A DNA stretch of 62,770 nt from an uncultured cyanobacterium (lineage in GTDB: Bacteria; Cyanobacteriota; Vampirovibrionia; Gastranaerophilales; Gastranaerophilaceae): positions 1 through 62,770 of the forward strand of contig CAMNNA010000001.1 in NCBI GenBank assembly GCA_946545285.1, in the 5' to 3' direction. Below are positions 2 through 62,770 of the stretch, one piece after another. Numbering within the stretch: position 1 is the stretch's first letter; every line of letters begins with the position of its first letter. The notes below the pieces were generated by a model. It worked only from the letters and a program-made list of their open reading frames with translations. It did no database searches and was not told the origin of the DNA. Made by a program: the position numbers and the translations under genes.

Positions 2-520
2 TTTGATTGGCTTGATATTTCTCAATCTCAAAGAGATGATATTATTGCAAAATACAAAAACCTTCTTTTTGACTCAAATTCAAGTGATATTTATTTTACA
101 AAAGATGAATTTAAACAAAAATTTGCTCAGTATAAAAAAGACAAAAATTTCAAACTTCATTACATGCTCACAAATAACGGTGTAACAGAAGATGAAGATG
201 CGAAATATTGTGCATTTTATTTTAAAAACAAAACATTAGTTATGTATGCAATTCAATACAAAAATAATCCGCATAATTCATTTTATTACTCTGCATTTGG
301 CAAACTATATTATACAGATGTCACATCAGATGAATATCCGAATTTTCCTTATACATCAATGCAATATGACAGAAAAGGCCGTTTAAAAAGTGCTATTTAT
401 TTTATATCAAAAGATTTACAGTATATGTACGGGCCTGATAAAGAATTCCAAGGTATTTGGTATAAAGATAAATTGTACGACAGAAATGGTAAGCAAACTC
501 TGACAAGAACTAATTGGTAA
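2..520 (+). CDS. hypothetical protein, 5' end outside window
   Basis: Frame 2 is open from nt 2 to TAA 518-520. The listed ORF 164..520 is only its Met-initiated tail. Y/K/D-rich, no motif recognised. Confidence 0.5.
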   Translation, partial: FDWLDISQSQRDDIIAKYKNLLFDSNSSDIYFTKDEFKQKFAQYKKDKNFKLHYMLTNNGVTEDEDAKYCAFYFKNKTLVMYAIQYKNNPHNSFYYSAFGKLYYTDVTSDEYPNFPYTSMQYDRKGRLKSAIYFISKDLQYMYGPDKEFQGIWYKDKLYDRNGKQTLTRTNW

Positions 521-586: not shown

Positions 587-3500
587 ATGAAAATTTTCAA
601 TGTAAGTAATATAAATATCTTTCCACAATTTTTAGGCAGAAGAAAAGACCGCAATACTGTCGAACAATTAACTCAAAATAATGATTACAATCTGAATCAT
701 AACAATCAAATTCGTATAAATAAAGCGATAGAAAATTTATCAAAATCATCAGATAAAGAAACAGTTGAGTTTTTACTTGACACTGCAGATAATTTAAAAT
801 ACGGGACAAATATTAATTTACGGGCAAAACAACCGTATAATGATTGGCGTTTAAAACTCAATAAAGCTGCATTGAAAGTTTACAAAAATTGTAATGATAA
901 CGATAAAAAGATAATAGATGAAAAAATGTTTAAGACTTTAGGGATTACCCAAAAGCCTCTAACAGATGATGAAAAAGAAATTTTGGAATTAAAAAAATCA
1001 ATATTATCAAATACTAAATCCAAAGAATTGGAAAACGTAAAAGGTCCGATGAAAAATCTTGTAACTAATTTAGATTATTTCATTATAAGTTCTGAAGTCT
1101 CAACTGCGGAAAAGCTTTATATAATGAAGCAATTAGATTATTTTATGAGTGATGCCTATGAAATTAACCCTCAGTTGAAAAATAAAAAAACGCAGGCATT
1201 AGCCGAAATAGTAAATGACATAACCGTTAATACCCCTGAATCAGAATATCCGAACACCAAGGCGATAAATCAAATGGGGCATGGGATTTGCGCCGCAATA
1301 TCCATATGCAGAAAAGCACTTTCATATGAACAGAAAGCAAAATATGTTGATATGGTTCTATCAGAGCTTGATTCAAATGATTACATGATGGTTTATGATA
1401 TTACAAAACTCGGCTCAGGAACAAAAATTCCTGTAAAAAAAGCTTCGATGGATTTTGAATATGCACTTGAAAAAGGATACCGAATAGTTGACACATCTGC
1501 TATGTATTGGATGAATGTTGCAGATATGGTCGGAGCGACAAATGAACAAATACAAAAATATATTCCGTTTAATAAAGGGGATTTAGATGTTTTACAAGAC
1601 TCACATATAAATGAAAATCTCGATATTGAACTGATTAACAAGCAAAATTTCTACAGAACATTAATAAAAAGCAGAGAACTATTTAAAAAATATCAAGTAA
1701 AAAAAGAAGAAAAACTGCATAAAGAAAGATTGTCAAAAAATTTAACCAAAAATAAATTTGATACAATTTATAAATATGAAACTTTGTTGGAAAATTTACT
1801 TTTTGATATTTCCCCAAAATCTGAAAGATCTGATATTAAAGAAATTAAAAAAAATTTACTTAATTTACAGGTAAATAATTCCGAAAAAAAAGAAAAATTT
1901 CCTAAAGAATTACAAAAATTTTCTTACATAGAAAATGAAGACGAAGAAATCATTCAAAAAAAGATAAAGCATTATTTAAGTGCAAATTACAATTTAGATG
2001 AAGAAAAATTAGAAAAAAATATTGATAAAATCGCAGAATATACAACAGAAATTAATAATCTTACAAAAGGAGATCAAATACATCCGGCTGCGAAATTAGT
2101 TCAAAAAAATAAGCAGTTATATTCTATTGCCGCAAGTTACCGAATTGCGCAGGAATATAAATTAAATATAGATGAAAACAAAGAGCATTTCATGACTTTA
2201 TACAACATTCCTGATACAGGTACATTAATGATTGAAAATCTGGATTATCTTATAAACTTGCTGGAAAAAGATAAGATGGACACTACTCTAAAAACCGGAT
2301 TGAAGAAAAATTTTGAAATTTCTGAAAGTAGTGATGAAGAATTACTAAAAACATTAAAAGATGTTAAAGACACAATTACTTATCTTTATACTGATTTGTT
2401 AGATGTTATGTACAATTCAATCTTATCAAAAGACAGAAAATCAGTACTTCATAATATGATTTTAGATTTAGAAAATGATATAGACGGAAAAATAACTCCT
2501 AATACTATAACAAAAATCGCAAGAGTTTTAAAAACAAAAGAAAATAAAGACGCAATTTTAAATAAATTATATGAACTTAATAATATATTAGAATCAGAAA
2601 ATCTGACTGAGGATAAATTAACTTATGTCTACAATTCAATCGGAGGAAAACTTCCGTTTGCAGATTTTTCGCAACAATTAAAGAAACTTAGCTATATACT
2701 TTTTGTAGACAAAAATACTCAGGTTATTCCGGGGTTTAATTTAATAAACGGGCTGGATAAGGATGCACCGTTATCTGAATCAGCAAAAGTTTTCTTGAAC
2801 ATTAATAACAATATGAATAACATTATCCAAATGATTAATTCATATAAACAAGCTTTAAAAGTCACCGATAAAACAGGAAGAATCCTAAATACCGTTGATG
2901 AAAATGATTATATTTTAAAAAAATTGGAAGAACACGGAAATGTCCCGAAAAGAAAAGATTTGGAACATTTTAGAGAAAAATTCAAAGAAATTGATAAAAG
3001 AAGATACAATAATGATGACAAAATAAAAGATATGCCGCCTGAATTAATAAAATTTAATTCATACGAAACTGAAATACTTAAAAATTACCAAAAACATATT
3101 GATATTTGGGCATCAAATGTTAATAAAGATTATATTTCAATTACAAAAGATTTAAAACCTCAATTAAGTGAACAGCACAGAAAAATAGGAGAATTAACCG
3201 GACAACGTTGGGTTCGCGTTGAAGGGGAAAGCGGGTTATCAAGCAATCAGGAAATAAAGATTTTTGAACATATGACTGATAAACCGTATTATTCTGAATC
3301 TGACAGCCAAAAGGCTATTGAAAAATTAGAAGAATCAAATTATCCTGCGATTTCAGCAACATCAGTTTCACATAAAGAACCTGCAATGCATGCTCAATAT
3401 ATAGCGGGGATATACACAGATGAATCCGGTAAAAAACTCTTTATGCATGACAACAGTTGGGGAAACTCGGAATTCAAAAATAATTGGAAAGATAAAAACG

Positions 3501-6490
3501 GAAGGACAAGAACCGATTATGAAAACGGTTATGGAGGAGAAAAGGGGTATATAGTAAACAATGAATACAAAACCGGCTATGAATTAGATGATATTTTAGA
3601 TGCTACTGTTGTTGTAAAACCTAAAAACACCCCGTCAAAAAAATTAAAAAAATTACACGGCGACTCGGACTATGAATGGTCTATGCCAATGTATAGAAAT
3701 ACAATACTGCAAGGAAAACACCCGAAAAGAAATGATTACGTTGAAATTATAAGGCAATTAATATTGCATAGCCCGGCGGCTTATCTTGATTCACTGTCTA
3801 AGCAGGCGCAAGAAATGACTGTTGATGAAATTAAAATGAAAATCAAAAAAGCCGAAACTATCGGAAAACACACTGCCGGCACTTATAATAATATTTTAAG
3901 CAAAATAAAAGGGGACGGTATCTTGAATTTTGGAATTAAAAATCAAGATGATTTTAACAAGCTGTCTGATAGTGATGATTTAAAGATAATTTTGGAAAAA
4001 GTTGCTATATCAAAATCTTACCCGAGTATAACTAATACTAAAAAATTATACAGTATTTCAAACTTTAAAGACTTACAAAAATTTAAAACCGAATTAAAAT
4101 CCGAAGCTATAGAAAATTTCAAATATTCTTTCGGGAAACATATTGATATTATTAAATACGGAGCCGAAAGTTCAAGAAAAGAAATTAACAGTTTACTAGA
4201 ACAATTTGAAAATTCTAATAATCTCAAAGTTGATTATTCTAAAAATAACCAAATAATAAGTTCTATGAAAAACATTTCCATAAAAGATTTTGACGGGAAT
4301 ATGGCGCATTCTATCGACACAATGACAAATATTTTTAATTCAGAATTTTCAAAATATTTATCGAAATTTAAAATAACAAATGATAAGGCCCAGGATCTAT
4401 CATTAAAAGTAAAAGATATATTAGAAAAAAATATGTATATAAATGAATCAGACTTAAAGTCTGAATTCAATGATGATGAAAACTTTAAACTTATTGAAGA
4501 ATTTATTGACAATAAAGATAATCCAAAAACAAATTCAGAATTTGTTAGTATTTTTAGAAATTATCAAAATATGACAACTGAAGAATTTAATTTGAATACT
4601 GAAAAATACTTAACTGACCGTATTTTAGGAATAAAAACCGTAAAAGGTTTTGATGTTATTAAAAAATTAAATCAAGGAAATGACAGTTACAGCGATTCTT
4701 TATTTAACATAATATTTGAACAAGAATATAGAAAAGAAACAGATTTAAGTAAAACAAAACCGACATACGATTATTATAAATTCTCAAGGATATATAACGG
4801 TCAAATATATCCGCAAGGCAGAACATTTGATGATGTATTTATAGATTATTATTACGATTTGTATATGTTGAGTAATAAAAAACGCATAAATAAAATCAGC
4901 GCTCAAATGTTCGAAAAATACGGTGTTTTCCCCGGATATCCCGACATTGATCCTGAATCTAAAGAAGGGATTAAAAAAACATTTGACAGATTGTTTGAAG
5001 TCATTGATGAAAATTCCGCAGCGATTTCAAGAAATAAAGAAATGATTGAAACTTACAGGTATATTGATGATTTACATGCAATGCTTGAATCTTCAAATGG
5101 TGATAAATTAATAAACGAAAAAGAATATAAAGAAATCAAAAAAAGATTTAAACTCGTAGAAAAATCACTGGAAGAAGATGATTCTACATTAAATATAGCA
5201 ATTGAAATAAAGGATCTGTTAGCGTCAAAAACACTTGATAGAGCAGCATATACGGCAATTTTGGCAGAAATTGAATTAACTATCGGCAGATTTCGTTACA
5301 CTCCTGCAGGCAAAACATTAAATGAACAAATTAAAGAGACAGACGAAGAATTAAACGATTTTGTAAGAAGTTTTGTAAATCATTCAATTCATCCGAAATA
5401 TCGTGACAGAGCATTTGATGCAATAAATGAATTTATAAAACTAAAAGCACGGTATTTTGATTATTCTGAACCGGATAAAAAACTTGAATACAAGCTTGAT
5501 AAAACATATGATAAAATTAAAAAAATATATGATAAACACAGAATATATCAAACATCAGAAGAAATACTAAAAGAATATGTATTAATGCATGCAAAAGATT
5601 ATCAAGTTGCAAAACCTGATACAAAGTCCGAACGTGCTGTAAAAGATTTATCTGAATTTGAAATTAAGAAAAAATCATTTAAAAATCTTTTAAAAGGGCT
5701 GCTTGCATCTGCTGAAATGGCGTCATTATTGAGAATTCTAATGACATGCGCTGATGAAGCGAATTTAAATGTTGTTAAAGAAGCGTTTAAAAATTCAAGT
5801 ATAGAACTTATAAACGGGCTTAGAGTTGCAATGGATTCAAATGAAGGTCTTGAGATCTTACTAAATCAATTATCAACTGAAAAAGATCAAAAAACTGCAC
5901 TGATGTTCATTGAGCAGCTGGGTTTAAGCGAACGTGCAATGGAAGTTTTAACTAAAAAAGCAGATTTTGAAAACAGATATAAATTAATAAACAGGGCACA
6001 TTCACTTTTAAAATCTCTTGATGCCGATATTGGTTTTGTCCACAGACAGCTTAAAGATATGCAGAATTATAAAAATAGAAATGACCTTTTTGTTAAAATT
6101 GATGAATTAAATGAAAAACTATTAAAAAGAAGAAAATGGACAAATTACAGACACGGAATCGACTTATATTCCGAATGTTTAAAAATGACAAAAAATCGAC
6201 TAAAAGATGTTGATCAAAAGGATTTAAAAGAAACATTTAATGAATATATGGATGCAACAGAATCAGTAATAATAAAAGATGCTCGGGATGAAGTCAGTGA
6301 AATTAATAAAGCAATCGAAAGCTATAATATGATTAATAATATGGTAGAAGAATTAAAAATTCCTAAAAATTCTGAGGCTGAAAAGCTAAAAGAAAAATAC
6401 CAAAAAGATTTTGAAGATTTTATTGAATATTGCAAAAATTCGAACAAAAAATACCCTAACATTGCAACAGAAACAGAATCTGATTTGTAA
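587..6490 (+). CDS. giant orphan protein (1967 aa) with putative split papain-like cysteine peptidase motifs
   Basis: One uninterrupted 1967-codon ORF, K/N/E/I-rich, with no signal peptide or TM seen. Q229-x5-C235 (NQMGHGICAAIS, nt 1271-1303). H935 ... D955-N956-S-W-G (AMHAQYIAGIY...LFMHDNSWG, nt 3383-3463), followed by GYGGEKGYIV. Confidence 0.8.
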   Translation: MKIFNVSNINIFPQFLGRRKDRNTVEQLTQNNDYNLNHNNQIRINKAIENLSKSSDKETVEFLLDTADNLKYGTNINLRAKQPYNDWRLKLNKAALKVYKNCNDNDKKIIDEKMFKTLGITQKPLTDDEKEILELKKSILSNTKSKELENVKGPMKNLVTNLDYFIISSEVSTAEKLYIMKQLDYFMSDAYEINPQLKNKKTQALAEIVNDITVNTPESEYPNTKAINQMGHGICAAISICRKALSYEQKAKYVDMVLSELDSNDYMMVYDITKLGSGTKIPVKKASMDFEYALEKGYRIVDTSAMYWMNVADMVGATNEQIQKYIPFNKGDLDVLQDSHINENLDIELINKQNFYRTLIKSRELFKKYQVKKEEKLHKERLSKNLTKNKFDTIYKYETLLENLLFDISPKSERSDIKEIKKNLLNLQVNNSEKKEKFPKELQKFSYIENEDEEIIQKKIKHYLSANYNLDEEKLEKNIDKIAEYTTEINNLTKGDQIHPAAKLVQKNKQLYSIAASYRIAQEYKLNIDENKEHFMTLYNIPDTGTLMIENLDYLINLLEKDKMDTTLKTGLKKNFEISESSDEELLKTLKDVKDTITYLYTDLLDVMYNSILSKDRKSVLHNMILDLENDIDGKITPNTITKIARVLKTKENKDAILNKLYELNNILESENLTEDKLTYVYNSIGGKLPFADFSQQLKKLSYILFVDKNTQVIPGFNLINGLDKDAPLSESAKVFLNINNNMNNIIQMINSYKQALKVTDKTGRILNTVDENDYILKKLEEHGNVPKRKDLEHFREKFKEIDKRRYNNDDKIKDMPPELIKFNSYETEILKNYQKHIDIWASNVNKDYISITKDLKPQLSEQHRKIGELTGQRWVRVEGESGLSSNQEIKIFEHMTDKPYYSESDSQKAIEKLEESNYPAISATSVSHKEPAMHAQYIAGIYTDESGKKLFMHDNSWGNSEFKNNWKDKNGRTRTDYENGYGGEKGYIVNNEYKTGYELDDILDATVVVKPKNTPSKKLKKLHGDSDYEWSMPMYRNTILQGKHPKRNDYVEIIRQLILHSPAAYLDSLSKQAQEMTVDEIKMKIKKAETIGKHTAGTYNNILSKIKGDGILNFGIKNQDDFNKLSDSDDLKIILEKVAISKSYPSITNTKKLYSISNFKDLQKFKTELKSEAIENFKYSFGKHIDIIKYGAESSRKEINSLLEQFENSNNLKVDYSKNNQIISSMKNISIKDFDGNMAHSIDTMTNIFNSEFSKYLSKFKITNDKAQDLSLKVKDILEKNMYINESDLKSEFNDDENFKLIEEFIDNKDNPKTNSEFVSIFRNYQNMTTEEFNLNTEKYLTDRILGIKTVKGFDVIKKLNQGNDSYSDSLFNIIFEQEYRKETDLSKTKPTYDYYKFSRIYNGQIYPQGRTFDDVFIDYYYDLYMLSNKKRINKISAQMFEKYGVFPGYPDIDPESKEGIKKTFDRLFEVIDENSAAISRNKEMIETYRYIDDLHAMLESSNGDKLINEKEYKEIKKRFKLVEKSLEEDDSTLNIAIEIKDLLASKTLDRAAYTAILAEIELTIGRFRYTPAGKTLNEQIKETDEELNDFVRSFVNHSIHPKYRDRAFDAINEFIKLKARYFDYSEPDKKLEYKLDKTYDKIKKIYDKHRIYQTSEEILKEYVLMHAKDYQVAKPDTKSERAVKDLSEFEIKKKSFKNLLKGLLASAEMASLLRILMTCADEANLNVVKEAFKNSSIELINGLRVAMDSNEGLEILLNQLSTEKDQKTALMFIEQLGLSERAMEVLTKKADFENRYKLINRAHSLLKSLDADIGFVHRQLKDMQNYKNRNDLFVKIDELNEKLLKRRKWTNYRHGIDLYSECLKMTKNRLKDVDQKDLKETFNEYMDATESVIIKDARDEVSEINKAIESYNMINNMVEELKIPKNSEAEKLKEKYQKDFEDFIEYCKNSNKKYPNIATETESDL

Positions 6491-8619: not shown

Positions 8620-11455
<2,836 letters not shown>

Positions 11456-44577: not shown

Positions 44578-44590
44578 TAAATTTAAATAT

Positions 44591-44632
44591 AAAAAAGACC
44601 TCCATCACAAAGACAGAGGTCTTAAAGTTTTT
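44591..44632. terminator. hairpin terminator between recF and gap (stronger on minus strand)
   Basis: AAGACCTC/GAGGTCTT (44595-602 / 44616-23). U6 follows on the minus strand. On the plus strand AAAGTTTTT follows. Confidence 0.65.
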
Positions 44633-44645
44633 AAATCGACAAAGA

Positions 44646-45650
44646 TTATAATTTAGAAGCAACCATATAAGTTGTTTCAGCTAATCTTGTAGAATAACCC
44701 ATTTCATTGTCGTACCAAGAAATAATTTTAACTTGGTTTCCGCCCATTACACGAGTTAATAAAGCATCAACAGTTGAAGATTGAGAAGTTCCGACATAAT
44801 CAGAAGATACTAACGGTTCTTCGGTATAGCAAAGAACATGTCCGTCAGCACCTGCTTTTAAAGCAGCGTTAACTTCTTCAACAGTAACGTCTTTTGAAAG
44901 TTCGAATACAACGTCAACCAATGATACATCAGGAGTAGGAACTCTCATAGCAAAACCGTCCAATTTACCTTTTAATTGAGGTAAAACTAAAGCAACAGCT
45001 TTAGCAGCACCTGTTTTAGTAGGAACGATATTTAAAGCACCTGCTCTTGCACGACGAGGATCTTTGTGACCTGCGTCTAAGATTCTTTGGTCACCTGTAT
45101 ATGAGTGAACTGTTGTCATCAAACCTTTAACGATGCCGAATTTTTCGTCAATAACCTTAGCGACAGGAGCTAAGCAGTTAGTTGTACAAGAAGCCATTGA
45201 AATAACGTTGTGTTTTGCAGGATCATATTCGTGATCGTTAACACCCAAAACAATAGTTTTGTCTTCGTTAGTTGCAGGAGCTGAGATAATAACTTTTTTA
45301 GCACCTGCATCAATGTGAGCATGAGCTTTAGTTGCATCTGTGAAGAAACCGGTTGATTCAACAACAACTTCTACACCCAAATCTTTCCAAGGAAGATTTG
45401 CAGGATCTTTTTCTGCGAAGAATTTAATTTTTTTACCGTTAACGATAATACCTTCTTCGTAAGCTTCAACAGTACCGCAGAATTTACCCATAACTGAGTC
45501 ATACTTGAAAATTCTTGCAGCATCTTCAGGTTTCAAACCCGGGTCGTTGATTGCTACATAATTAATCTTGTCAAAAATACCTTCTCTGATAGCGGCTCTT
45601 AAAGTGTTACGGCCGATTCTACCAAATCCGTTAATTGCTACATTTACCAT
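44646..45650 (-). CDS. gap: type I glyceraldehyde-3-phosphate dehydrogenase
   Basis: INGFGRIGRN, active site SCTTNCLAP, WYDNEMGYS. Confidence 0.95.
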   Translation of the reverse strand: MVNVAINGFGRIGRNTLRAAIREGIFDKINYVAINDPGLKPEDAARIFKYDSVMGKFCGTVEAYEEGIIVNGKKIKFFAEKDPANLPWKDLGVEVVVESTGFFTDATKAHAHIDAGAKKVIISAPATNEDKTIVLGVNDHEYDPAKHNVISMASCTTNCLAPVAKVIDEKFGIVKGLMTTVHSYTGDQRILDAGHKDPRRARAGALNIVPTKTGAAKAVALVLPQLKGKLDGFAMRVPTPDVSLVDVVFELSKDVTVEEVNAALKAGADGHVLCYTEEPLVSSDYVGTSQSSTVDALLTRVMGGNQVKIISWYDNEMGYSTRLAETTYMVASKL

Positions 45651-59105: not shown

Positions 59106-60119
59106 TTATACACTATCTTTTAAATGCAGGGCAATAATACTTGCAACTTTTTGAGGAATTTTATTATAATATTCTCCCTCAACGGCACTAAATACAAGGC
59201 GTTTGACCTCTAATCTTTCGCCTGACAACATTGTTTCTAATTGTTTATGATTCTTATTTTGTGTAAACTTTCTTATTATATTAACAATTTTTGACGGAGT
59301 AAAATCCGTATTTTTAGGTAAATTAGTTTTAATTTCTTTTAAGCACCTTAATGCATTATAAGGTCCGATTTTTTTAGTTAAATCAGGGATTTGCATGTAT
59401 TTAATTACAGCTTGAGCGTCCTCATCATTGAAAGTATTCAAAATTGTTTGCACTTTATCCTGATTCATTCTTTTAAATAACATTGCAACCGTGGCAAGTT
59501 TTAAAACTTTAGAATCAACTTTTGGAAAATCATTTGCCGAATTTTGCACATTTAAATCAGTATCAGAAGAAATTTGAGTATCTGAATTTTCAGAAGGCTG
59601 AGAGTTTTGCTGAGCTTGCTGCTGCATTTCTTGTGCCATTTTATCCATATTTGATTGAGATTGAGCAAATTCCATCAATCCTTCATCTATAATTCCACGC
59701 TGGTTCAATTCCTGTAATGCTTGAGCATATGCGTTTTTTACATGATGTTCAACTAATTCCAAACATTGATCAGATGGCAAATTTTGCCCAAAAGCCTGTT
59801 TTGCTATTTCAAATATAGTATACGCAATTTTTTGCATAACACTATCCCAATATTGTCTTGGGATACCGGATCTTATAACATCAACAGATTTATGAAACGA
59901 CCATTCGGCAATAATTTGAGTAATTGTCTTTGAAGTATCAGCATCAAAAGTTAAATTCGGGTCTTGCGCTAACGCTTGCCCTGCCATCATGGAAAAATTT
60001 CCAAGAGTATTTACTACATACTGCTTTTGCTCATCATTAAATTCTTCGGGGACAAGACCTTGTGCCTGAGCTGCAAGGTCTTGTGCAAAACTTTGAAAAT
60101 CAAAATCAGGTGCAGACAT
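59106..60119 (-). CDS. FliG-position protein with only FliG N-domain-like similarity
   Basis: Located between fliF and fliH. Residues ~205-337 (KLATVAMLFKRMNQDKVQTILNTFNDEDAQAVIKYM ... IPQKVASIIALHL) resemble FliG_N and the start of FliG_M. No torque-helix C-domain. The Q-rich N-terminal ~200 aa are unrecognised. Confidence 0.45.
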   Translation of the reverse strand: MSAPDFDFQSFAQDLAAQAQGLVPEEFNDEQKQYVVNTLGNFSMMAGQALAQDPNLTFDADTSKTITQIIAEWSFHKSVDVIRSGIPRQYWDSVMQKIAYTIFEIAKQAFGQNLPSDQCLELVEHHVKNAYAQALQELNQRGIIDEGLMEFAQSQSNMDKMAQEMQQQAQQNSQPSENSDTQISSDTDLNVQNSANDFPKVDSKVLKLATVAMLFKRMNQDKVQTILNTFNDEDAQAVIKYMQIPDLTKKIGPYNALRCLKEIKTNLPKNTDFTPSKIVNIIRKFTQNKNHKQLETMLSGERLEVKRLVFSAVEGEYYNKIPQKVASIIALHLKDSV

Positions 60120-61845: not shown

Positions 61846-62190
61846 CTATATATTTAACTGCATAATTCTATCGTAAGCATTTATTACTTTCCCTGTCAAT
61901 TGAGTTGCAATATTAACGCTGATTTCAGACTTTGCCATAGCAACCATAACATCATGAATATCAACGTTTTTATTTCCTTGCATAGCGTCTTTCAACAGAT
62001 TGTCAGGCGCATTAATTTCTTCATTAAGATTATCCGCAATATTGCCTAAAACCTGTTTGAAACTTACAGCCTCAGAATTATTTACACCATCCATTCTAAC
62101 TGACGGCATAGAATAGCTGATTCCTGTATCAAACTTCGCTCCCGCTATCCTTGAAGATAAATCATAATTCGGAAAATAATTACCGTTCAT
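61846..62190 (-). CDS. fliE: flagellar hook-basal body protein FliE
   Basis: C-terminal DIHDVMVAMAKSEISVNIATQLTGKVINAYDRIMQL matches the FliE signature. SD AGGAGG. Confidence 0.85.
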   Translation of the reverse strand: MNGNYFPNYDLSSRIAGAKFDTGISYSMPSVRMDGVNNSEAVSFKQVLGNIADNLNEEINAPDNLLKDAMQGNKNVDIHDVMVAMAKSEISVNIATQLTGKVINAYDRIMQLNI

Positions 62191-62323
62191 AAATACTACC
62201 TCCTATTTATAATACTTTATACCAACCACTTAATTCAACTTTTATTAAAAAAATCAATCAAATGTAGTATAAATTTTGTACCTTAAATATTATTTAATGA
62301 TTTATTTGAAAAAATCAATTTTT

Positions 62324-62364
62324 AAGGCGGAATTTGAATTCTCAAATTCCGCCTTTTCTATTTT
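62324..62364. terminator. strong hairpin plus T-rich tract with no obvious upstream plus-strand gene
   Basis: 14-bp stem AAGGCGGAATTTGA/TCAAATTCCGCCTT (62324-37 / 62342-55), followed by TTCTATTTT. Confidence 0.55.
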
Positions 62365-62597
62365 AAATTATTATTCTGCTACTGCTGCTTTTTTCTTGCA
62401 AAAATCATTATGTTACAATTTGAATATAATTGAATTATTATTAAGTTAGTTGACATGTTTAACACTAATTATAATAATTATAAATGCACTTTGAAAAAAC
62501 TAAGCACAGGGTAAAGGATGCTCTATTTCAAAAGGAATCCAACCGCCACACATAATTCTGACTTCGGGCTGATTCCCGACTAGAAAGGAGTCATAAT

Positions 62598-62678
62598 ATG
62601 GATAAATTCAATTTAACATTATTTTTAATTCTATTGATTTTAATCACATTAAAAAATGGCTCTTATCTCAAAAGATAA
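62598..62678 (+). CDS. 26-aa hydrophobic peptide, candidate type I toxin
   Basis: [33 protein letters not shown] lies 7 nt upstream of the ATG. One TM-length hydrophobic core with a basic C-terminus. Below the ORF-track length cutoff. Confidence 0.5.
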   Translation: MDKFNLTLFLILLILITLKNGSYLKR

Positions 62679-62732
62679 AAGCCATTCTGACTTCTACAGA
62701 GTATCCGGCAGCTTAGGAAACTGCCACCCTGT
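62650..62732 (-). ncRNA. candidate antisense sRNA (antitoxin) overlapping the 3' end of the small ORF
   Basis: Driven by the minus-strand promoter at 62739-62767. Ends at a 10-bp hairpin (62658-83) that is fully paired only in the minus-strand RNA (U.G wobble versus C/A mismatch on plus), followed by U6 (62651-56). Confidence 0.5.
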
Positions 62733-62738
62733 GTTTTT

Positions 62739-62767
62739 ATTATAACTTATTTCTTATAAAATTTCAA
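62739..62767 (-). promoter_or_regulatory. near-consensus sigma70 promoter on minus strand
   Basis: Minus strand reads TTGAAA (62767-62), 17-nt spacer, TATAAT (62744-39). Confidence 0.65.
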
Positions 62768-62770
62768 GTC

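Follow-up and report, generated by a model that had tools for sequence, protein, structure and literature searches.

In type I toxin-antitoxin systems, the toxins are hydrophobic peptides of ~20-60 amino acids made from messenger RNAs (mRNAs) of 150-400 nucleotides (nt), and in several families, namely Fst/RNAII, TxpA/RatA, YonT, SprA1, SprG and BsrE/G/H, the antisense RNA is encoded on the 3' side (PMC8594479). The overlap of the two RNAs includes the open reading frame (ORF) in all these 3'-side families except Fst/RNAII and SprA1, for which the interaction has been located outside the overlap (PMC8594479). Here we consider a locus at the very end of a 62,770-nt stretch of DNA from an uncultured cyanobacterium of the family Gastranaerophilaceae (contig CAMNNA010000001.1; the whole stretch is called the window, and all positions are those of the window unless another contig is named). 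A preliminary description had proposed that this locus specifies two convergent RNAs resembling a par/Fst-type system, one of them encoding a small hydrophobic peptide and the other antisense to it. According to our analysis, what lies here is probably a single copy of a module that is autonomous and resembles type I toxin-antitoxin systems.

The argument is built on 11 distinct sequence variants of the locus, which come from rumen and gut metagenomes and from phage contigs of the IMG/VR database. As judged from the comparison of these variants, the element is a real, conserved and mobile two-RNA module, and there is strong support for its predicted layout, which comprises the ORF, the two promoters, the two RNA structures and the match of two repeat copies (R1 and R2) with a linker in the antisense RNA. 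From this layout we infer that both RNAs are produced, that the peptide is toxic, that the antisense RNA represses it (i.e. the direction of regulation) and that an RNase takes part.

Layout of the locus

The features of the locus are listed below; SD stands for Shine-Dalgarno, UTR for untranslated region and sRNA for small RNA.

62387-62449, no strand assigned: left end of a ~440-nt duplicated unit (see below)
~62388-62410, within the left end of the unit: short 3'-end remnant of a gene of the 152-residue family, from the junction alignment
62450-62478, plus strand: promoter of the peptide mRNA, TTGACA-17 nt-AATAAT, agreeing with the consensus at 11 of 12 positions
62485-62738, plus strand: predicted peptide mRNA of ~250 nt, from fold energy and consensus structure, its ends predicted and unmapped
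62505-62512, plus strand: 5' strand of helix P1, CACAGGGT, partner of 62726-62733
62516-62524, plus strand: 5' strand of helix P2, GGATGCTCT, partner of 62698-62706
62534-62576, plus strand: 5' UTR hairpin H2 (GGAATC...GATTCC) with R1 in its loop, from folds of the variants
62555-62565, plus strand: R1, the repeat copy in the 5' UTR, ATTCTGACTTC, with which the antisense RNA linker is proposed to pair in trans
62584-62590, plus strand: AAAGGAG, followed after 7 nt by the ATG at 62598
62587-62590, plus strand: SD core GGAG, 7 nt 5' of the ATG
62598-62678, plus strand: ORF of the 26-residue hydrophobic peptide, 26 codons, kept in all 11 variants
62684-62694, plus strand: R2, the post-stop copy of the repeat, ATTCTGACTTC, predicted anti-SD element with its complement in the antisense RNA linker
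62698-62706, plus strand: 3' strand of P2, in the mRNA 3' end
62707-62725, plus strand: hairpin GGCAG...CTGCC, in the mRNA 3' end
62726-62733, plus strand: 3' strand of P1, ACCCTGTG, complementary to CACAGGGT
62734-62738, plus strand: run of five T directly after the 3' strand of P1
62649-62733, minus strand: predicted antisense sRNA of ~85 nt, from fold z-score, shared architecture and covariance model
62732-62696, minus strand: sRNA 5' hairpin SL1, predicted fold
~62695-62687, minus strand: single-stranded sRNA linker GAAGUCAG, predicted fold
62688-62653, minus strand: sRNA terminator SL2, predicted fold
62651-62656, minus strand: U-run of the sRNA (A6 on the plus strand), after the terminator hairpin
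62739-62767, minus strand: promoter of the antisense sRNA, TTGAAA-17 nt-TATAAT, agreeing with the consensus at 11 of 12 positions

Inspection of the sequence located every feature of the preliminary description exactly where it had been placed, including the AAAGGAG element spaced by 7 nt from the hydrophobic 26-codon ORF, and the minus-strand promoter (62767-62739). The hairpin GGCTCTTATC/GATAAAAGCC at 62658-62683, said to be fully paired only in the minus-strand transcript and to be followed by U6, indeed pairs throughout on the minus strand only, where a U.G pair stands in place of the single C.A mismatch of the plus strand. Within the 62.8-kb window, ATTCTGACTTC occurs in just two exact copies (62555-62565 and 62684-62694), and its GACTTC part is complementary to GGAGTC of the SD region.

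The peptide gene

The ORF is 26 codons long and free of indels in all 11 variants, unlike the UTRs, which do have indels among the variants (including a 102-nt insertion in the UTR of the variant from contig L012). Statistics on codon positions, substitutions and open frames were obtained for nine of the 11 variants. Variable sites at codon positions 1, 2 and 3 number 19, 8 and 18, respectively, the second positions thus being the most conserved; the proportion of nonsynonymous differences (pN) is 0.21 against 0.51 for synonymous ones (pS); and the 26-codon frame is the only one open in every variant. The SD element lies 5-8 nt 5' of the ATG in all variants. Taken together, this comparison shows the ORF to be under purifying selection, and on the same evidence the 26-codon ORF is a real gene.

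The consensus of the 11 peptides, MDxFNLxLxLIFLILxILKNGSxLNR, has seven invariant residues (M1, N5, L8, I14, L15, K19 and G21) and consists of a 15-residue hydrophobic core and a basic tail; we propose that the product is a single-helix membrane peptide with a basic tail. With 26 amino acids on a predicted mRNA of ~250 nt, it falls within the general size range of type I toxins. Searches of Pfam and NCBIfam (both at E up to 10), PHROGs and PADLOC returned no match to the peptide, and so no match to any toxin family in these collections; the Pro-x3-Gly motif is absent from all 11 peptides, and a full-text literature search for the peptide motifs found no paper.

The peptide mRNA

A promoter of the form T[TAC]GACA-17-TAATAT or similar stands at the equivalent position upstream of the mRNA in all 11 variants, its spacer sequences being divergent. 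Both convergent promoters are of the sigma-70 type, and both have a spacer of exactly 17 nt in every variant. The plus-strand RNA is predicted to fold with -73.1 kcal/mol (z = -6.4), as good a value having been reached by 0 of 200 shuffled sequences. In a nine-variant alignment, 94.7% of the cells of the mRNA consensus structure are paired and 11 pairs are changed on both sides, compared with 5.5 +/- 1.6 in shuffles, and controls with the partners slid by 1-3 columns are just 38-46% paired.

The 5'-3' fold-back proposed in the preliminary description (CACAGGGT/ACCCTGTG) is borne out by this comparison, with P1 and P2 forming closing helices of the two mRNA ends that show compensatory changes; P2 is possible in all 11 variants with six different sequences. 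Hairpin H2 belongs to the minimum-energy fold in eight of the 11 variants, its version in L013 being fully compensated. RNAalifold had picked, from nine variants, a small CGGG/CCCG hairpin 5' of the SD as the conserved structure of the 5' UTR; we set it aside because the longer, R1-enclosing H2 suits L013, L019, L023 and L024 better, and the two are treated here as alternative predicted folds.

The SD core is predicted to be paired in the full-length mRNA of all variants (unpaired probability 0-0.20, and 0.00 in the window variant), and the SD:R2 helix is 97% paired in the nine-variant mRNA alignment. The idea that the repeat sequesters the SD thus holds in that GACTTC complements GGAGTC, with the correction that the main predicted partner, in 10 of the 11 variants, is the downstream copy R2 and not the upstream one.

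L012 (~366-467, plus strand) and L014 have one and the same 102-nt sequence inserted in the 5' UTR, at a point precisely after the R1 hairpin and before the SD. Its ends (GAATTTCC...GGAAATTC) are complementary and its predicted fold has -37.5 kcal/mol, the remaining module is intact, and the insertion may be a small mobile or structured element.

The antisense RNA

The promoter of the putative sRNA (TTGACA or TTGAAA, 17 nt, AATAAT or TATAAT) is kept in all 11 variants, again with divergent spacers. The minus-strand RNA folds with -37.3 kcal/mol (z = -5.6; 0 of 200 shuffles as good), and all nine variants that were folded individually share one architecture: a two-tier 5' hairpin, a single-stranded linker, a terminator of 12-16 base pairs and a U-run. 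A covariance model of the sRNA matches all 11 variants over the full length (102.7 bits in the window), and it recovers known copies only. A weak further match at 44588-44648 (16.5 bits, E ~0.1) was taken as an ordinary hairpin and was not inspected.

At the same positions, 97.3% of the sRNA structure cells are paired on the minus strand (including 48 G.U cells) and 81.2% on the plus strand, in an alignment that was fitted to the model and is therefore biased towards this structure. Folding energies of the same stretch in nine variants are -33 to -42 kcal/mol for the minus and -20 to -24 kcal/mol for the plus strand. The higher degree of pairing on the minus than on the plus strand points to selection acting on the minus-strand transcript, in line with the earlier proposal of an antisense RNA across the 3' end of the ORF. 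A type I system is expected to have an antisense RNA that possesses a promoter and a terminator of its own and pairs with the toxin mRNA; such an RNA is predicted here, although from sequence only.

Codons 20-26 and the 3' UTR lie opposite the predicted sRNA (62733 to 62649), whose terminator (62653-62688) covers the last ~7 codons and the stop codon, and the 3' end of the mRNA lies at the 5' end of the sRNA. The sRNA 5' end (CACAGGGU...GGAUACUCU) is identical in sequence to the 5' end of the mRNA. No Rfam antitoxin family matched positions 62100-62770 (E up to 10) or three homologous loci (E up to 1).

The direct repeat and its specificity

Nine repeat types occur among the variants (examples being TTCTGACTTC, TTGAACCTC, TAGACCTC, TCTGACTTTC, ACTTCGATTTC, TAAGTCTC, TGACCTC, TTAAGRCTTC and CAGAACTC), and R1 matches R2 within each of the 11 variants, not in cross-pairings. 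The complement of R2 sits in the single-stranded linker of the antisense RNA, and each R1 is able to form, in register, 7-13 contiguous base pairs with the sRNA encoded by the same variant. These cognate pairings total 92 base pairs, against a mean of 40 and a maximum of 82 in permutations across variants (0 of 50,000 as high), and their duplex energies range from -14 to -17 kcal/mol, compared with a mean of -8.3 for non-cognate combinations. Cross-variant permutation was adopted in place of mononucleotide shuffles of the short 3' UTR because the latter, as a null model for the repeat, produced implausibly long matches. Internal differences between R1 and R2 are three in number (in L018, L023 and L024), all of them transitions that keep the pairing with the sRNA via wobble, and no other co-varying partner for the repeat was found within the mRNA (p = 0.22). 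Because R1 matches R2 in each variant and no such partner was found within the mRNA, pairing in trans of the antisense linker with the 5' UTR copy R1 is the simplest and most likely explanation, and the suggestion that the repeat supplies a second antisense target in the 5' UTR gains support from this co-variation.

More tentatively, and with considerable doubt, R1, R2 and their complement in the linker might be regarded as a fast-evolving 'address' that makes each module orthogonal to the others. If so, related prophages, or paralogues in the same cell, would keep toxin-antitoxin pairs that are unable to cross-neutralise, and the address could serve prophage addiction or the exclusion of a competing phage with a different address. 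Two strains of one species bear on this point: at the same locus, variant A (on the metagenome scaffold L001) and variant B (in the strain represented by L002) are 99-100% identical in the flanks, i.e. promoters, P1, P2 and the sRNA 5' hairpin, and over the stretch that runs from R1 to R2 their identity is just 68%. Such a mosaic suggests that toxin and specificity region were replaced jointly, in the manner of a cassette, and it fits an exchange of address plus toxin.

Relatives, genomic context and mobility

Relatives were retrieved in several ways. Six true homologues with 75-79% identity over the whole RNA came from a metagenome scan that used a 22-mer of the 3' hairpin. Seven viral contigs came from IMG/VR, which was scanned for a pattern of the 5' UTR and for a degenerate one of the peptide-coding part. 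In IMG/VR, the sRNA-hairpin 27-mer and 22-mer gave no match, a pattern from the sRNA promoter region gave no new member, and three matches to the 5'-block pattern (L020-L022) were judged to be due to chance. Comparison by blastn in distant mode found no match among GenBank phages and, among GenBank plasmids, two short partial matches in Vibrio plasmids (20% of the query, E = 4e-4), likewise taken as chance. Asked whether there are further copies, the window itself contains none (blastn, tblastn and covariance model), and a second copy does exist beyond its end, as described next, along with the relatives in metagenomes and IMG/VR.

The 125-kb metagenome scaffold L001 was reached through the exact FliE protein encoded beside the module. 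On it, a unit of ~440 nt is tandemly duplicated (8978-9804), so that the sequence of window positions 62387-62770 appears again 443 nt further on with 99% identity. The window end falls within this tandem duplication of the module, and the repeat probably broke the window's assembly. The second strain (L002) has two copies of variant B, which is 85% identical to variant A, each beside a gene for a protein of 152/153 residues without known domain, and a third strain (L004) has one module copy. The spacer between the L001 copies is a 3' remnant of the 153-residue paralogue that is intact in L002, and a shorter remnant precedes copy 1. The locus is thus reshaped between strains through duplication and deletion.

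The 152/153-residue family (L001 8509-8967, L002 8792-9253) is located just past the window end and has been duplicated along with the module; the gene is preceded by an XRE-type helix-turn-helix gene, and the 152-residue protein has no match in Pfam, NCBIfam, PHROGs or PADLOC. The gene's stop codon is immediately adjacent to the sRNA promoter at its -35 box, and read-through could therefore also yield antisense RNA. In L002, a (CATAT)n microsatellite lies at ~8660-8700, between the upstream region of the 153-residue paralogue and the second module copy.

On all seven viral contigs, the module has genes for tail fibres or their assembly on one side and the endolysin region on the other, and L010, L012 and L014 present the same kind of prophage setting, L014 also with an integrase. 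The window genome and L009 carry the module on the chromosome, beside XRE-type regulators, and there the next gene is convergent, for which reason the module is not a leader for a downstream gene. In L013, ~290 nt 3' of the module (1983-2059, plus strand), there is an Rfam RT-18 RNA (RF03021; 62.7 bits against a gathering score of 41.3), which we take to be a motif associated with reverse transcriptases, and an ORF begins after it at 2071; the module in this contig may adjoin a retron-like element.

The source genome is low in GC (~31%) and belongs to a flagellated bacterium of rumen or gut metagenomes, with the flagellar gene order fliE-fliF-(fliG?)-fliH-flhA-sigma factor in the window. The gene of 337 residues that takes the place of fliG, with fliF and fliH as its neighbours (59106-60119, minus strand), has no Pfam match, nor does a protein of 1967 residues (587-6490, plus strand), which suggests a very divergent lineage. 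Ten window proteins compared with Pfam proved to be housekeeping genes only, and the PDB matches of GluRS gave no information on the host. Between the fliE upstream region and the module, positions 62324-62355 form a perfect 14-base-pair hairpin (AAGGCGGAATTTGA/TCAAATTCCGCCTT) with T-rich and A-rich runs at its sides; this hairpin looks like a bidirectional intrinsic terminator insulating the module from the flagellar operon.

A working model and its alternatives

We envisage the module to work as follows. The plus strand would give rise to the ~250-nt mRNA for the 26-residue membrane peptide, locked in cis by P1 and P2, which would join its ends, and by a second lock in which the SD would pair with the pyrimidine-rich R2 directly behind the stop codon. 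The minus strand would use a promoter of its own to give rise to the ~85-nt sRNA, composed of the 5' hairpin, the single-stranded linker and an intrinsic terminator inside the last codons, and fully complementary to the last ~85 nt of the mRNA. The resulting duplex would displace the 5' end of the mRNA and unzip P1 and P2, which it must open because the sRNA 5' end has the sequence of the mRNA 5' end. By analogy with 3'-overlapping systems (PMC3834814, PMC4147584), the ~85-base-pair duplex would be a substrate for a double-strand-specific RNase, leading to mRNA decay. The linker would also pair with R1, the 7-13-nt element in the loop of the 5' UTR hairpin ~20 nt 5' of the SD, as a second, trans-type contact near the translation start, adding control of translation. 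The sequence of the repeat would then decide which sRNA fits which mRNA.

Several points weigh against this reading. The hydrophobic stretch of the peptide measures just ~15 residues, and the U-tract 3' of the 3' helix of the mRNA is weak (UUAUAUUAUUU) in all but the window variant, because of which the mRNA 3' end is uncertain. When the 3' overlap was blocked in silico, the SD stayed mostly paired (unpaired probability 0.01-0.31), and in some variants its accessibility rose slightly (from 0.00 to 0.30 in the window variant); such folding does not by itself predict translational repression. All relatives were found via patterns derived from the module, the pattern segments being invariant by ascertainment, so that the sample does not give the true distribution of the family, and a 20-mer from the 5' block met with two chance matches only (L007 and L008) in 185,579 GTDB species-representative genomes. 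The bias of the sRNA pair counts mentioned above belongs here as well. On the other side, the tandem duplication, the strain-variable copy number and the tail-fibre-assembly/lysis position on phage contigs are all typical of type I loci.

Among the alternatives, the one that survives best, although we consider it unlikely, is that the peptide is no toxin and instead serves phage or host as a small membrane protein, for instance in superinfection exclusion, in modulating the time of lysis or as a membrane regulator, its synthesis being tuned by a cis-antisense RNA. It would fit the location of the module just 5' of the lysis cassette and co-oriented with late genes on the seven viral contigs and in L010, L012 and L014, a position often occupied by phage accessory genes (morons), and the absence of any toxin-family match to the peptide in the searches above. 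However, the module is autonomous, the convergent neighbour in the window genome and L009 leaving it no downstream gene to regulate, and its multi-layer cis-repression by 5'-3' closure and SD sequestration, together with tandem duplication and variable copy number between strains, are hallmarks of type I toxins and not of small proteins of the ordinary sort.

A still less probable scenario concerns the repeat: both copies could work as anti-SD elements in cis alone, R1 as a trap that forms transiently during transcription and R2 as the final lock, R1 and R2 being equal solely since both pair with the same SD, with the sRNA acting through the 3' overlap only. Both copies do have CCUC, CUUC or UUUC at their ends, which allows pairing with the SD at -4.6 to -8.1 kcal/mol; in nearly every variant (10 of 11) the partner predicted for the SD is R2; and the AapA3 mRNA is reported to contain anti-SD elements that act in succession (PMC6733600). 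Yet the SD-repeat pairing is devoid of variant specificity, with 532 and 904 of 5040 permutations scoring equally well; four variants have an identical SD region (GAAAGGGGGCTGATATG) and three different repeats; the identity of R1 and R2 reaches 3-7 nt past the anti-SD core; and the missing co-varying partner within the mRNA, as well as the wobble-compatible internal differences, fit the sRNA as the partner of R1 better.

Very improbable in our opinion is a third possibility, in which the sRNA is an activator whose SD-like linker (GAAG or GAGG) captures R1 and R2, frees the SD and turns peptide synthesis on. The linker indeed resembles the SD region (GAAGTCAGAAT and GGAGTCATAAT in the window variant), and blocking of the 3' overlap raises the predicted unpaired probability of the SD in several variants (from 0.00 to 0.30, 0.04 to 0.24 and 0.03 to 0.16), but the SD is mostly paired in every simulated state (unpaired probability <=0.31), the mRNA should become less stable in a perfect duplex of 85 base pairs, which also undoes the protective 5'-3' helix, and the characterised 3'-overlapping systems all repress (PMC3834814, PMC4147584). 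Finally, a structured non-coding plus-strand RNA with a chance 26-codon ORF is hardly credible: the RNA is highly structured (z = -6.4) and the antisense terminator constrains part of the ORF sequence, but the length of the ORF never varies, in the nine variants analysed its frame alone is open throughout and second codon positions are conserved with pN < pS, and an SD stands 5-8 nt 5' of every ATG.

We thus return to the toxin-antitoxin interpretation and its implications. To our knowledge, almost no RNA-regulated toxins have been described in uncultured bacteria of the gut and rumen and in their phages; if the peptide is toxic, the module would represent a new type I toxin-antitoxin family from these organisms. 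Its natural variants amount to a compensatory-mutation experiment that reveals a short, swappable element linking the antisense RNA to a second target site, and through them the control of an mRNA 5' end by a 3'-overlapping antitoxin and the avoidance of cross-talk between paralogous systems become testable. The variants could also supply ready-made pairs of orthogonal RNA regulators, a use recently explored for other type I systems (PMC12721322).

Comparison with known type I systems

At the curated thresholds of Rfam the module has no match, and the same holds for Pfam, NCBIfam, PHROGs and PADLOC; it looks like an uncatalogued toxin-antitoxin pair. The system first suggested as its relative, par from plasmid pAD1 found in Enterococcus faecalis (Fst mRNA RNA I, antitoxin RNA II), has convergent RNAs as the module does, and in both cases the antisense RNA reaches the 5' region of the toxin mRNA beyond the simple overlap via direct repeats, by prediction in the module, and the SD is held in an intramolecular stem, again predicted in the module (PMC4147584, PMC8309996). 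The two par RNAs, however, share one bidirectional terminator and their overlap stops short of the coding region (PMC4147584), whereas the module has separate terminators and an overlap in the ORF. The two repeats of par (DRa and DRb) flank the start codon, whereas the module has a single repeat pair with one copy inside the overlap. The Fst/Ldr peptides carry an APxxxG (PxxxG) motif (PMC8309996), which the module peptide lacks. Of the traits that would place the module in the Fst/RNAII family, the motif, the shared terminator and an Rfam or Pfam match are absent and the repeat-based 5' complementarity alone is found; the resemblance to par noted in the preliminary description is therefore one of function.

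In the coverage of codons 20-26 and the 3' UTR by the sRNA, the module is organised in the manner of BsrG/SR4 and TxpA/RatA. The Bacillus subtilis prophage systems bsrG/SR4, txpA/RatA, yonT/SR6 and bsrE/SR5 all have, like the module, the antisense RNA on the 3' side and the last part of the ORF within the overlap; location on a prophage is a further likeness, and their toxins (BsrG, TxpA, YonT and BsrE) are 29-59 amino acids long. In bsrG/SR4, binding at the 3' end also alters SD sequestration, making SR4 a dual-action antitoxin (PMC3834814, PMC8594479). A second, dispersed target site made of a repeat is absent from the B. subtilis systems and present in the module. No sequence relationship to them was found, the Rfam model of BsrG (RF01412), the best of the weak Rfam matches, giving a partial match at 62565-62659 with 13.9 bits (E = 0.74), far below the gathering score of 55.

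With hok/Sok of plasmid R1 and aapA1/IsoA1 of Helicobacter pylori, the module shares a way of working and no detectable sequence similarity: the full-length mRNAs of these systems are silenced by a long 5'-3' helix and anti-SD pairing (PMC5416894, PMC6733600, PMC8594479), and both a 5'-3' helix and an anti-SD element are predicted for the module. Their antisense RNAs lie within the 5' part of the mRNA and activation proceeds via 3' trimming, whereas the antisense RNA of the module covers the 3' end. In sprA1/SprA1AS of Staphylococcus aureus, an antisense RNA encoded in cis uses a non-overlapping region to act 'in trans' where translation is initiated (PMC8309996, PMC8594479), as we propose for the linker and R1; the SprA1 toxin, however, belongs to the Fst/Ldr group (PxxxGC motif) and the overlap in its family excludes the ORF (PMC8594479), which the overlap of the module includes. 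The module is thus a combination of two patterns, joining an overlap that reaches into the ORF, as in BsrG and TxpA, with a dispersed 5' target made by a repeat, as in par.

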